DNA of 64,000 bases, taken from the NCBI GenBank assembly GCA_963706215.1, contig OY970154.1:2190243-2254242 (forward strand), written 5' to 3'. The notes under the pieces were generated by a model that worked only from the letters and a program-made list of their open reading frames with translations, searched no databases and was not told the DNA's origin. The DNA is from an uncultured Alphaproteobacteria bacterium. Lineage in GTDB: Bacteria > Pseudomonadota > Alphaproteobacteria > Rhizobiales > Beijerinckiaceae. Every line of letters starts with the position of its first letter. Within the stretch, counting starts at the first letter, position 1. The position numbers were made by a program, and so were the translations under genes. This document shows positions 12,196-16,384 of this stretch, piece by piece.

Positions 12196-13260
12196 ATGGC
12201 GTCCTCCAATGTCTCCGTGAAGAGCAACAAACAGGTTCCGCCGGGAAAGATTGGCATTCTGCTCGTCAACCTTGGCACGCCGGACGCCCCCCGTTTCTGG
12301 CCGGTGCGCCGGTTTCTCAAGGAATTCCTGTCGGATCCGCGGGTGATCGAGACGCCACGGATTTTCTGGTGGCCGATTCTGCACTTTATCATTCTGGTTC
12401 TGCGCCCGCGCCGGATCGCCAAGCACTATGCCGCGATCTGGAACAAGGAAGGGGGCGATGGTCCGCTGAAGGCAATCACCCGGTCGCAGGCCGAAAAGCT
12501 CGCGGCTTGGATCGGCGCCGGGGGCCTCGATCCGAAAGGACAGCACGCCGCCCGCGACAAATTCTTCATCGCTTGGGCCTTGCGCTACCGCAAGCCGGAC
12601 ATCACGCAAGGAATCGTGACCCTCAAAGAGCACGGCTGCACGAGAATCCTTGTCCTGCCGCTTTATCCGCAATATGCCGCCGCCACGACGGCGAGCGTCC
12701 ATGACAAAATTTTCGAAACATTGAAAGCGATGCGATGGCAACCTGCGGTGCGGATCGCGCCGCCCTATTTCGACGACCGCAGCTATATCGACGTTCTGGC
12801 GACTTCCCTTCGAGCCCGGCTGTCGCGTCTCGATTTCATTCCCGATACGATCCTGGTTTCCTTCCACGGCCTTCCGAAGGCGACAGTCGCCAAGGGCGAT
12901 CCTTATTGCGACCAATGCCTCGAGACATGGCGGCTCTTGCGCGAAGACCTCGGGCTTGGCGCCGACAGGTGTCCGGTCAGCTTTCAATCGCGCTTCGGTG
13001 CGCGGGAATGGCTGCAACCTTACACGGCGGAGAAGGTGAAGAGCCTCGCGTCCGAGGGGACCAAGGGCTTGGTCGTCATTACGCCCGGGTTTTCCGCCGA
13101 TTGTCTCGAAACGCTCTATGAAATCGAGGTCGAATACCGCCAGATCTTCACCGAAAATGGAGGCAAGAACTTTGCCGCGATTCCATGCCTCAACGATAGC
13201 GAGCTCGGCATGATGCTCATTCACGATTTGGCCGCGCGCGAGCTGAAAGGCTGGATCTAG
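12196..13260 (+). CDS. hemH: Ferrochelatase
   Basis: LVNLGTP, PLYPQY, SFHGLP, FQSRFG, DCLETL motifs. Confidence 0.96.
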   Translation: MASSNVSVKSNKQVPPGKIGILLVNLGTPDAPRFWPVRRFLKEFLSDPRVIETPRIFWWPILHFIILVLRPRRIAKHYAAIWNKEGGDGPLKAITRSQAEKLAAWIGAGGLDPKGQHAARDKFFIAWALRYRKPDITQGIVTLKEHGCTRILVLPLYPQYAAATTASVHDKIFETLKAMRWQPAVRIAPPYFDDRSYIDVLATSLRARLSRLDFIPDTILVSFHGLPKATVAKGDPYCDQCLETWRLLREDLGLGADRCPVSFQSRFGAREWLQPYTAEKVKSLASEGTKGLVVITPGFSADCLETLYEIEVEYRQIFTENGGKNFAAIPCLNDSELGMMLIHDLAARELKGWI

Positions 13261-13351
13261 GGCTGTGTGGTTCTAGGCGAACTTCTGGACAGATGATAAG
13301 CGGCGTGTGCCGCTTGCGTTCTTCGACGCGGCCGGCGAAGGCAAAAAATTT

Positions 13352-13372
13352 GGGAATTATATATTTTACGCC
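13352..13372. repeat. Candidate IS1595-family (ISNwi1-group-like) terminal repeat at the edge of the low-GC islet
   Basis: GGGAATTATATATTTTACGCC fits the ggnnatTAT end consensus as I recall it; AT-rich flank AAAAATTT; no clear partner repeat. Confidence 0.4.
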
Positions 13373-13422
13373 CTTTCTGATGTTGATGAGGCTGCCACGC
13401 CGCATTTCCAGAAGGAATCATC

Positions 13423-13881
13423 TTAGACGGACGGCTTTCGTCTCTTGAGGTAGCGCACAATCTGTCCGTATAGGGCTCCTGCTATGGCGCCAAGCTCATG
13501 CTCAATATCGATGCCTCTACCGAGTTTGCTCGTCCAACAGTGAGCGTCTAGCTGCCTAGCCGCGTGTTTCGGAATCCCGTTCTTTGCGAAGATGGCAATC
13601 TTCTCGAAATTCTCTTCAAAAGTTCCGTCCACACATTCGACATATTCTTTGAACTCGAAAGCCTTTACGTAGGCATCAACGGTTTCTTGCTGCGGAACGC
13701 CAGGAGGCCAATATCGCTTCCCTCCTAACAATGGCACCGGTTGCCACCATAGTTTAGTGCCAGCGGCAAATCCGATGCAGTTGTAGCGCGGATCACACTC
13801 ACTTGTCTTTTTGTGGTTGCCATCCGTTAGCCCAGGAAACGCCAGGCGATAGTCTGGTGGGGGTGCCTTGACATCGCTCAA
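13423..13881 (-). CDS. Hypothetical protein with papain-like Cys/His arrangement (DUF7689-like)
   Basis: YNCIGFA...YWPPG...FEKIAIF...KHAARQL...WTSKLG...DIEH; TTG at 13881 overlaps the upstream TGA. Confidence 0.75.
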   Translation of the reverse strand: MSDVKAPPPDYRLAFPGLTDGNHKKTSECDPRYNCIGFAAGTKLWWQPVPLLGGKRYWPPGVPQQETVDAYVKAFEFKEYVECVDGTFEENFEKIAIFAKNGIPKHAARQLDAHCWTSKLGRGIDIEHELGAIAGALYGQIVRYLKRRKPSV

Positions 13882-14309
13882 CGAACGATACTGCGACGTT
13901 TGCCCCAGTCCAGCCAAGCGTCACACGCTGCTTGAATGTCGCCGTCAGGCACGTGTTCAGCGGGGTTGGCTCCCGTAATCGCGGCGAGCGCCCAATACCA
14001 ATGGTCAGGTTCATTTTGCAGTTCTTGAAGGATTAATGGCACAACAGCGACGCCCATACCAATGATTTGCTGATAGCTTGGGTCCAAAACAATTTCGGTC
14101 ACCGATGAAGAGAACGCCGTGTTATGTCGCCATTGACCGGTAAGTTTCTCGAACTTCTCTTTTAGAGATGACCCAACGGAGCTTGTAGCTAAGAACAGCG
14201 CAGCTCCACGCTCAGGCATTCCTCGATGCGACGGAGGCACCGAAAAGTCAGCTAACCAAGAACCCAGCATTGGCTCGTAGCTGATAGTGGATGTCGAGAG
14301 AGCATTCAT
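13878..14309 (-). CDS. Hypothetical protein with helical C-terminal domain
   Basis: 143 aa; FEKLTGQW...PSYQQIIGMG...VPLILQEL...HWYWALAAITGANP...AWLDWG; ATGA overlap with the upstream gene. Confidence 0.8.
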   Translation of the reverse strand: MNALSTSTISYEPMLGSWLADFSVPPSHRGMPERGAALFLATSSVGSSLKEKFEKLTGQWRHNTAFSSSVTEIVLDPSYQQIIGMGVAVVPLILQELQNEPDHWYWALAAITGANPAEHVPDGDIQAACDAWLDWGKRRSIVR

Positions 14310-14692
14310 TTCTTATCCTTCGGGCGGTTTGCCTTCGTGGTAGCAATGATTTCATTCATTTGCTGAAACTCACTGATTTTTCCATCAAGCCAAGTGCGAA
14401 GCGCAATTGCGGTTTCTTCTGAAATAATCAAGTCGGCCTCAATCTCACGAAAGAGGCCATGCCGTCCCTCCCGCTTCTCCAGGATCTCTTGACCAATGAT
14501 GCCCTTATCTATTTTGTGCGTCACAACTTTCGGAATTGGCTGACGCTCGTTATAGACCGCCATGTGGAGCAATTTAGAACCGGGAGAAATCCCGCCAAAC
14601 ACCCCGTCCACATGAATGACGCGGAAAAGATTGCTCTTCTCGAACTGAAATTCGATCTCCGATTCATCGAAGATTTTTGGTGGTCGATCCAT
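14306..14692 (-). CDS. Hypothetical protein (possibly DUF3467/secretion-chaperone-like alpha-beta fold)
   Basis: 128 aa; FRVIHVDGVFGG, YNERQPIP, REIEADLII; RBS GAGGAA. Confidence 0.8.
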   Translation of the reverse strand: MDRPPKIFDESEIEFQFEKSNLFRVIHVDGVFGGISPGSKLLHMAVYNERQPIPKVVTHKIDKGIIGQEILEKREGRHGLFREIEADLIISEETAIALRTWLDGKISEFQQMNEIIATTKANRPKDKK

Positions 14693-15091
14693 CGTTTCCT
14701 CACGGGCCGCATGTACACGCGGCGGCGCTCCAGTAGTCGCTTCCGCGCGGGCTTTGGCTTTGGTTTTGGCCTAAAGGATAGCACCAGGTCGGCAATCGCG
14801 TCCAATACCTTCGGCGGCTTGGAGTTCTTGAAATGTGTTTCAAGCCGGAACGGTGATACTCGGCGAATTTTTGGACGGATGGAAAGCGGCGTGCGCCGCT
14901 TGAGGTCCTCGAAGCGGCCTGCGATCCAGGCACCGGCCTGCCCATTGGCGAAACCTCGAATAATTTCAGAGCCGCCCCGGACGGCCTCGGTCGACATTTG
15001 CCGGCGTTAAGGAAAATTGCCGGCGAAAGCATCGCGGTCTTCCAGCACGTTGAATGACCACGCCTTCGCGGAACCTAAGTCAAAACGAGTC

Positions 15092-16384
15092 TCATTCGGC
15101 GGCGCGTTTGAACTCCGGGAACGTGCAACGCGCGTCGCTCTCCTGCTTGAATTCGAGTATTTTTGCAGGCTCGACGAAGGGCAGCTCGAGCGTTCGCCAG
15201 ACATCGGCCATGCTTTCCACGAGATGCGCGATATGCGCATCCGTGTGCAAGGGAGTTGGCGTGATGCGCAATCTTTCGCCGCCTCTGGCGACCGTCGGAT
15301 AATTGATCGGCTGGATATAGATCGCGTGGCGATCGAGCAGCATGTCGGTCGCGCGCTTGCAGAGTTCGGGATCGCCGACGAGCACTGGCACGATATGGGA
15401 CGGGTTCGGCATCACCGGCAGACCGGCCGCGCTCAGGGCATGTTTGGTGAGCATCGCCTGGCGTTGATGTTGGGCGCGGAGTTCATCGCCTTGTCCCTGC
15501 TTCAAGAAGCGTATGGCGGTTGTCGCGGCGGCGGCGACCGCCGGAGGCAGAGCCGTGGTGAAAATGAAGGCGGGCGCGTGCGAGCGCACGGCATCGACGA
15601 TCGCCGTCTTGGCGGCGATATAGCCGCCGAGCGTTCCAAATCCCTTGGCAAGGGTTCCTTCGATGACGTCGATCTGGTCCATGACGCCGTCGCGTTCGGC
15701 GATGCCTCCGCCATGCGGACCGTAGAGACCGACCGCATGCACTTCGTCGATATAGGTCATGGCGTTGTAACGGCGCGCGAGATCGGCGATTTCCGCGACC
15801 GGAGCGATGTCGCCATGCATCGAATAGAGGCTTTCGAAGACGATCAGCTTGGCCCGCTCCCGCCCCGCCCCGCGCAAAAGCTCTTCGAGATGGGCGAGAT
15901 CGTTATGGCGAAAAATTTGCCGCTGAGCCTTGGAGCGGCGGATGCCTTCGATCATCGAGTTATGGTTGAATTCATCCGAAAGGATGAGGCAATCGGGCAA
16001 AAGATCGCCAATCGTGGAAATCGCCGCCAGATTGGAAATCCAGCCCGAGGTAAACACGAGCGCCGCCTCCTTGCCGTGGAGGCCGACCAATTCGGCTTCG
16101 AGCTCGACGAGGGGATGATTGGTGCCCGCGATATTGCGCGTGCCGCCGGCACCGGCCCCATGCCGGATCGCGGCCGCGGTCATCGCTTCGATCACCTCTG
16201 GATGCCGGGCCATGCAGAGATAGTCGTTGGAACACCAAATCACGACTTCGCCGATGCGGTCCGGTCCGTGCCACACGGCGCGCGGAAACGCCTTTGCGTC
16301 CCGCTCGAGGTCGGCGAAGACCCGGTAGCGGCGTTCCCCCTTCAACTTTGAGATCGCATCGTCGAAGAAGCGCGAATAGGGCAT
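15092..16384 (-). CDS. hemA: 5-aminolevulinate synthase
   Basis: [35 protein letters not shown] (PLP lysine). Confidence 0.97.

Follow-up and report, generated by a model that had tools for sequence, protein, structure and literature searches.

A DUF7689 gene and its strictly paired partner in a low-GC islet of an uncultured alphaproteobacterium: a putative mobile three-part conflict module

Introduction

Three short genes on the minus strand lie between hemH and hemA on contig OY970154.1 (assembly GCA_963706215.1) of an uncultured alphaproteobacterium of the family Beijerinckiaceae, in DNA of lower GC content than its flanks. The whole stretch analysed, referred to below as the window, comprises 64,000 nucleotides (nt; contig positions 2,190,243 to 2,254,242), and coordinates refer to the window unless a locus handle (L followed by a number) is given. 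An earlier note on this DNA had proposed that the three genes, here called g1, g2 and g3, form a toxin-antitoxin-chaperone (TAC) or defence module whose last product is a papain-like Cys/His protein. What kind of system do these genes form, and is the triad as such the unit that is conserved?

We consider it about an even chance (a probability of roughly 0.5) that the islet is a member of a widespread, horizontally mobile three-part conflict module, putatively toxin-antitoxin-like or anti-phage. This reading follows from a set of traits which together form the signature of a conflict system: strict pairing of two genes, swapping of the gene upstream of them, a patchy distribution among phyla, multicopy and tandem arrays, low GC content, flanking repeats, carriage by phages, association with insertion sequence (IS) elements and embedding in type I restriction-modification (R-M) operons. 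The tripartite toxin-antitoxin-like or defence kind of system is itself known. No characterised system has this composition, as was already believed when the locus was first described and as searches of Pfam, NCBIfam, PADLOC and the literature have now borne out, and the families of its components are all uncharacterised.

The g2-g3 pair as the conserved unit

The genes of the triad are the following:

14306..14692, minus strand: g1, open reading frame (ORF) of 128 amino acids (aa) preceded by the Shine-Dalgarno sequence GAGGA; heads the triad
13878..14309, minus strand: g2, ORF of 143 aa with an AAGGA Shine-Dalgarno sequence; ATGA overlap with g1
13423..13881, minus strand: g3, 152 aa from a TTG start; DUF7689 protein, putative effector

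The overlaps are ATGA at 14309-14306 between g1 and g2 and TTGA at 13881-13878 between g2 and g3; an alternative TTG at 13917 would give a g3 product of 164 aa. While g1 and g2 are preceded by good Shine-Dalgarno sequences (GAGGA and AAGGA), g3 has none, which agrees with translational coupling. Positions and GC values confirmed what the earlier note had described here, that is, three minus-strand genes that overlap at ATGA and TTGA and occupy a low-GC islet flanked by hemH and hemA. Its statement that g1-g3 lack signal peptides was shared by us, as none was seen by eye in any of the three proteins. The genes are real, since each of them has many homologues.

In a scan of one genome per species, DUF7689 was found in at least 543 species, and 80 loci were kept for analysis. 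They span Planctomycetota, Nitrospirota, Acidobacteriota, Verrucomicrobiota, Bacteroidota, Myxococcota, Chloroflexota, Actinomycetota and Pseudomonadota. Hidden Markov models built from the homologues of g1, g2 and g3 were run on the six-frame ORFs of these loci. A g2 homologue was located immediately upstream of DUF7689 on the same strand in 78 of the 80 loci, and the other two end at a contig edge. The pairs come from at least 10 phyla. The same arrangement was present in all 19 viral contigs from IMG/VR, and DUF7689 also came next in each of three further loci picked for a g2 homologue of unusual length or domain content. The three genes had been expected to occur together. This holds for g2 and g3 (78/80 loci) but not for g1, which is present in only 3 of the 80 loci and is replaced elsewhere by unrelated families. 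The conserved unit is the translationally coupled g2-g3 pair and not the whole triad.

In the g2 proteins, a variable N-terminal part (0 to ~130 aa) is followed by a domain of ~95 aa at the C-terminus that is conserved and rich in Trp. The residues F53, W60, Y79-Q80, I82-G84, P91, W104, W132 and W135 are invariant in the alignment. The sequence pattern suggests that the C-terminal domain is helical. Searches with g2 gave no match in Pfam, in NCBIfam or among PDB sequences. Comparison of the N-terminal extension with the presence of an upstream partner gave p = 0.22, with only 9 clean pair-only loci.

The two genes also occur as a natural g3::g2 fusion, a single ORF of 299 aa (L062 7259-8158, minus strand) whose divergent DUF7689 part carries the YNC, H and W-SK-G motifs. 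Its domain order is the reverse of that in the usual g2-g3 gene pair. A planctomycete contig (L026 9270-13006) contains three tandem g2-g3 pairs between copies of a 180-nt repeat, which is present in 4 copies, 72-95% identical and spaced by ~1.16-1.24 kb. The array is a diverged tandem amplification.

Gene 3 as a predicted papain-like enzyme

The product of g3 matches Pfam DUF7689 (PF24738) with 110.6 bits (E 9.6e-32) over profile positions 2-118 of 118, the curated cut-off for the whole protein being 22.6 bits. We found no publication mentioning DUF7689, and a sequence-profile search of PDB yielded nothing useful for g3. In an alignment of 33 g3 homologues reaching down to 37% identity, S27, Y33, N34, C35, W46, W58, P59, E89, A96, H106, Q110, W116, S118, K119, G121, D125 and H128 are invariant (numbering of the 152-aa protein). 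The Cys47/His118 couple pointed out in the earlier note in the numbering of the 164-aa form corresponds to Cys35/His106, both of which are invariant in these 33 homologues.

The AlphaFold2 model of g3 is confident (predicted local distance difference test, pLDDT, 93.7; predicted template modelling score, pTM, 0.88). In the model, C35 begins a helix (35-39), H106 lies in strand 103-110, and D125 and H128 lie in strand 124-128 of the same sheet region. The order and modelled placement of Cys, His and Asp-His are those of the catalytic residues of papain/NlpC-P60-like enzymes. In a Foldseek search of PDB with this model, the best match was 3h41 (probability 0.77, template modelling (TM) score 0.41). 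The top matches were mostly papain-like cysteine hydrolases, namely NlpC/P60 proteins (2hbw, 4xcm, 2evr, 3h41, MepS, CwlO), the C39 domain of PCAT1 and AvrPphB (C58). The best named matches in BFVD were NlpC/P60, CHAP, peptidoglycan endopeptidase and 'Type VI secretion exported 1' (Tse1-like) proteins, with probabilities of 0.97-0.99 and TM scores of 0.40-0.51.

On the basis of the invariant Cys/His set, its placement in the model and the consistent though weak fold matches, g3 is predicted to be a divergent papain/NlpC-P60-like Cys-His enzyme. The papain-like nature ascribed to it by eye was supported in this respect by the invariant residues and the NlpC/P60-like predicted fold. Its chemistry may be that of a peptidase, an amidase or an acyl-transferase. 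By analogy with the known activities of the superfamily, and as a speculation, a cytoplasmic NlpC/P60-like g3 could attack cell-wall precursors at gamma-glutamyl or peptide bonds, or else have proteins or lipids as its substrates.

The interchangeable upstream gene

The gene upstream of the pair is interchangeable, and only a minority of the sampled genomes have g1 there. The upstream gene ends at the g2 start, often with a 4-nt overlap, and the following families occupy this position in the 80 genome loci:

upstream of g2, ~29-30 of 80 genome loci: TIGR04255-family protein of ~250 aa (NCBIfam E 5e-45)
upstream of g2, 6 of 80 genome loci: g0B, an unnamed family of ~220-235 aa
upstream of g2, 5 of 80 genome loci: g0C, an unnamed family of ~90 aa
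upstream of g2, 3 of 80 genome loci: g1
upstream of g2, remaining genome loci: another gene or nothing obvious

The upstream gene in L021, for example, matched TIGR04255 with 154 bits at an NCBIfam cut-off of 30 bits. No publication mentioning TIGR04255 was found, and nothing useful resulted from a sequence-profile search of PDB with this family. A common ancestry of g1, TIGR04255, g0B and g0C was considered and rejected by hhalign (probability ~1%).

A further variant was found on a metagenome contig (L193 2191-5190), where a histidine kinase gene (601 aa) is followed by a receiver::g2 fusion (246 aa) and then by DUF7689. A two-component input takes the place of the usual upstream gene in this locus. 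The kinase/receiver::g2 variant supports the view that g2 is the regulated element.

The g1 genes found in the genome sample are all from Alphaproteobacteria. The g1 family as a whole is nevertheless large, with 2299 cluster representatives at E<=1e-3 in a full profile search (clusters at 50% identity). The g1 protein of the window did not match Pfam, NCBIfam, TIGR04255 or DUF3467; 13 of 148 g1 relatives matched DUF3467 weakly (best E 1.4e-4), and the literature on DUF3467 contained nothing relevant. The AlphaFold2 model of g1 (pLDDT 94.4) consists of five strands forming a beta-sheet head and a C-terminal helix of ~30 residues. In a fold search of PDB nothing was found at E<=0.001, the top match being a levivirus coat protein (TM score 0.27), and a sequence-profile search of PDB with g1 was of no use either. 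A SecB-like nature of g1 was rejected, as no SecB was present among 55 PDB fold matches at E<=10 and no SecB Pfam match was obtained.

In a set of 80 metagenome loci with g1 homologues, g1 was followed by g2 in 36 cases, nearly all of which continue with g3. In another 24 loci g1 was followed by a different coupled two-gene cassette, d1 and d2 (for example, L102 5387-6479, L164 5319-6346 and L119 5351-6346). The d1 genes belong to 2-3 families and the d2 products have ~140-160 aa; neither matched Pfam, and both were found by hhalign to be unrelated to g2 and g3. Since g1 stands before both g2-g3 and d1-d2, and since the g2-g3 pair stands behind several unrelated genes, both halves are modular: the same front gene can precede several back pairs, and the same back pair can follow several front genes.

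Genomic contexts and mobility

The cassette is found mainly in Planctomycetota, Nitrospirota, Acidobacteriota and phages of Bacteroidota. The commonest neighbour family among 150 flanking ORFs was the specificity subunit of type I R-M systems. In at least six loci (L010, L021, L046, L059, L060 and L071) the cassette lies inside a type I R-M operon, as confirmed with Pfam. The gene order is hsdR, triad, hsdS ... hsdM in L021 and L059, hsdR, triad, hsdM/S in L060 and hsdM ... triad, hsdS, hsdR in L071. Genes that lie inside type I R-M loci frequently encode defence systems (bioRxiv 10.1101/2024.01.29.577857; PMC11411939).

The 19 IMG/VR contigs that carry the module are mostly of the TIGR04255 type. 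In L172, an ORF of 600 aa is 67-76% identical to large terminases of Porphyromonas phages and other Bacteroidota phages, and an ORF of L184 matches Flavobacterium phage proteins; judging by these similarities, at least these two module-bearing contigs are real phage genomes. In both L172 and L184, TIGR04255-g2-DUF7689 is located between apparent head genes and a tape-measure gene of 1163-1420 aa, as far as can be told from ORF sizes and order.

The closest relatives of the g1-g2-g3 triad (g3 identity 66-69%) are found away from hemH-hemA, beside an IS1-like transposase gene. Beside a close g1-g2-g3 relative in a metagenome-assembled genome (MAG) of Xanthobacteraceae (L188 7303-12462), there are genes for a Ser/Thr kinase-Sel1 protein, a TIR_2-domain protein, a PP2C phosphatase and an FHA-trypsin protein. 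This neighbourhood may be another conflict locus.

Within the window, a 72-nt direct repeat, which had escaped the earlier note, stands on either side of the islet. The features concerned are:

13339..14852: low-GC islet between the repeat copies, putative inserted DNA of ~1.5 kb, recognised by its GC content and by close triad homologues at other sites in related bacteria
13267..13338: direct repeat copy 1, 72 nt; starts 7 nt past the hemH stop; hairpin AAGCGGC-GTGT-GCCGCTT
14853..14924: direct repeat copy 2, 72 nt; in the spacer that separates the g1 start from the hemA stop; 81% identity with copy 1
ends at 13260, plus strand: hemH (ferrochelatase), islet neighbour
ends at 15092, minus strand: hemA, Aminotran_1_2 protein consistent with 5-aminolevulinate synthase, islet neighbour

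The GC content is 0.475-0.545 over 13400-14800 versus 0.58-0.64 in the flanks. Local alignment of the repeat copies gave a score of 44 compared to 9 +/- 1 for shuffled sequence; there are only two copies within the window, where none would be expected by chance. The hairpin AAGCGGC-GTGY-GCCGCTT is kept in both. The repeat did not match Rfam, and its predicted fold was no better than that of shuffled sequence except for this one conserved hairpin. No integron attC-like core sites were seen by eye, and no integrase lies between the copies. The repeat may have arisen when the former spacer between hemH and hemA was duplicated in an att-like or Campbell-type manner.

Long direct repeats in both flanks (44-280 nt, 90-97% identical) were found in 7 of 101 modules versus 1 of 303 size-matched control windows. 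The repeat-flanked g2-g3 modules are 1-2.4 kb long and contain no integrase (L042 8618-8791/10055-10228, L058 5870-5953/6948-7031, L053, L032, L035 and L088). As read from the repeat sequences, the repeat in L042 and L058 appears to be a second copy of the 3' end of the gene next to it, which is a signature of Campbell-type insertion. In L026 the repeat stems from the tandem amplification. The 72-nt repeat of the window fits this pattern. A link of the triad to defence or conflict contexts, which had been no more than suspected at first, has been found in its presence within type I R-M operons and phages, near IS elements and in islets flanked by repeats.

Comparison with known systems

The known TAC systems (M. 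tuberculosis HigBA-SecB(TA), E. coli HigBAC and CmdTAC) resemble the locus in consisting of three small coupled genes and in having a modular third component common to different two-gene units, here g1 with g2-g3 and d1-d2. They differ from it in several respects. The TAC chaperone gene is the last one in its operon, whereas the gene of the third component comes first here. The chaperone in TAC is SecB-like and g1 is not, the effector here is a predicted papain-like Cys-His protein and not an RNase or an ADP-ribosyltransferase, and the g2-g3 pair is also combined with unrelated upstream families (TIGR04255 and others). The extension of the TAC antitoxin is C-terminal (PMC5105189, PMC6377645), whereas g2 ends in the conserved domain and its variable extension is N-terminal. 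In TAC, the third component acts as a sensor of phage and determines how stable the middle component is (PMC5105189, PMC6377645, bioRxiv 10.1101/2024.02.24.581848, PMC11618068); the chaperone has been shown to be a phage sensor combined with swappable 'warheads' (bioRxiv 10.1101/2024.02.24.581848). The proteins of the locus are unrelated to the components of TAC. Since g1 is not SecB-like by fold, membership in the TAC family, as originally proposed for the triad, is unsupported, although a TAC-like logic may still apply.

The NlpC/P60, CHAP and C39 hydrolases, including the amidase effectors of type VI secretion systems (Tae/Tse1), share with g3 the Cys at the N-terminus of a helix, followed by His and a polar residue on beta strands. 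LRAT-type acyltransferases are another papain-like group comparable with the NlpC/P60 hydrolases. The differences are that g3 has no sequence-level match, that its fold matches reach E-values of only 0.02-0.3 and TM scores of 0.3-0.5, that it carries neither a signal peptide nor a secretion domain and that it is always paired with g2.

Further comparators are the type II toxin-antitoxin pairs, the hyper-promiscuous antitoxin domains (PanA/DUF4065) and fused sensor-type toxin-antitoxins such as CapRel-SJ46. Most type II antitoxins possess a DNA-binding domain. Like type II systems, g2 and g3 form a small, overlapping, co-directional and co-occurring pair with the putative antidote first, mixed partners, a fused form and a presence in prophages and islets. 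They differ from such systems in that no DNA-binding domain can be recognised in g2, that each of the two genes is strictly tied to the other and that a third gene is usually present.

Position within type I R-M operons has been used to find defence genes through 'guilt by embedding' (bioRxiv 10.1101/2024.01.29.577857; PMC11411939). The cassette resembles the defence genes embedded in R-M loci (PrrC, TgvAB and the PADLOC PDC candidates) in being located between hsdR and hsdS/hsdM in several phyla, but it has no match in PADLOC v2 and only ~8% of the sampled loci are embedded in this way.

Proposed function and rival explanations

According to the conflict-module reading, g2 would bind g3 and keep it inactive or controlled, and the upstream protein, which is g1 in the window, would be an input or stabiliser acting on g2. 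Once this arrangement of g1, g2 and g3 is disturbed, for example by an infecting phage or because the element is lost, the released g3 would cleave or modify a cytoplasmic target, whereupon growth would stop. A bolder form of this reading, which we put forward only tentatively and hold to be less probable than the reading itself, is that DUF7689 and g2 are the 'warhead' of a phylum-spanning anti-phage or addiction family. In that case at least four unrelated plug-in sensors (g1, TIGR04255, the two unnamed families and a histidine kinase acting via a receiver) would control a cell-halting cytoplasmic NlpC/P60-like hydrolase, and the family may spread as an integrase-less cassette via duplicated target sequences.

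Several results weigh against a conflict module. PADLOC-DB v2.0.0 gave no family match for g1-g3 at E<=1 and none at E<=0.1 for the TIGR04255, g0B and g0C families or for a g2/g3 pair from Nitrospira, so that nothing links the cassette to a validated defence system. The similarity of g3 to papain-like enzymes is consistent but weak, with no Foldseek match at E<=0.001. Pfam revealed no DNA-binding domain (HTH, RHH or AbrB) in g2 or in 28 homologues, and neither g2 nor g3 was found without its partner, which means that the asymmetry of orphan antidotes is lacking. The neighbours of the cassette are mostly ordinary metabolic genes. By tblastn, the g3 of the window had no match in sequenced plasmids and cultured phages, nor had g1 in plasmids. 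The islet itself is fixed: it is present in all 22 contigs that carry the same HemH protein, and no empty insertion site occurs among them. Finally, the kinase/receiver::g2 variant would suit an ordinary regulated enzyme equally well.

A regulated enzyme of this sort is the main rival, though on balance an unlikely one. DUF7689 would then be a cytoplasmic housekeeping or stress peptidase or amidase engaged in the turnover of peptides, cell-wall precursors or protein modifications, with g2 serving it as an adaptor or regulatory subunit and with a lineage-specific regulator encoded upstream. The variant made up of a histidine kinase, receiver::g2 and g3 does resemble ordinary signal transduction, the natural g3::g2 fusion suits an enzyme with a regulatory domain, and the metabolic neighbours, the fixation in the species and the absence of a PADLOC match point the same way. 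Such an enzyme would, however, hardly be expected to be scattered patchily across phyla in several copies per genome and in tandem arrays, or to be found in R-M operons, in phages, in low-GC and repeat-bounded insertions and at other, IS-adjacent sites in close relatives. The exchange of partners among four unrelated families is also unlike housekeeping enzymes.

The two other explanations are less likely still. That the locus is a true TAC system seems improbable: its coupled three-gene operon, the variable low-complexity N-terminal extension of g2 and the service of g1 to different two-gene 'warheads', as in TAC modularity (bioRxiv 10.1101/2024.02.24.581848), would fit, but g1 has neither a SecB fold nor a SecB Pfam match, the g2 extension is at the wrong end, the gene of the third component leads the operon, g3 is no toxin of the HigB, HicA, MqsR or CmdT kind, and the pair is also found behind three other unrelated upstream families or behind none. 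We regard as very improbable a peptide-maturation pair, in which the g3 peptidase would free the variable N-terminal part of a g2 precursor as a signal or bacteriocin-like product. It would account for a hypervariable N-terminus beside a conserved domain in g2 and for the fact that g3 is as close to C39-type leader peptidases as to NlpC/P60 proteins. Yet no conserved transporter, modification enzyme or immunity gene is located nearby, the conserved part of g2 is a Trp-rich domain of 95 aa without Gly-Gly-type motifs and unlike a leader peptide, and the kinase/receiver::g2 fusion is ill-suited to such a role.

If the cassette is a conflict system, the repertoire of toxin-antitoxin and defence systems would gain a new effector chemistry, that of a cytoplasmic papain/NlpC-P60-like hydrolase, together with an obligate partner domain that is likewise new. 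The cassette would also provide the first functional leads for DUF7689, TIGR04255 and the large g1 family (~2300 clusters), and its natural combinations would allow the coupling of different sensors to a single effector to be studied. The main phyla of the cassette are poorly studied and their defence systems under-sampled. With their bounding repeats and their lack of an integrase, the islets of 1-2.4 kb are also of interest for the way in which such minimal cassettes move.

Other features of the locus

Public gene calls on identical contigs from several MAGs contain the same genes of 128, 143 and 152 aa. In two public contigs g3 was not called, yet it is intact in the DNA of all 8 contigs compared; the omission is a matter of gene calling caused by the TTG start. 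The islet DNA is identical in 7 of 8 contigs of the species, and one base differs in the eighth. A consensus scan revealed no promoter or terminator within the islet, the sole terminator-like match being at 13162-13176 inside hemH. A DDE_Tnp_1 transposase gene and a RelB-family antitoxin gene are located ~4-6 kb past hemH (L001 14760-16760, locus coordinates).

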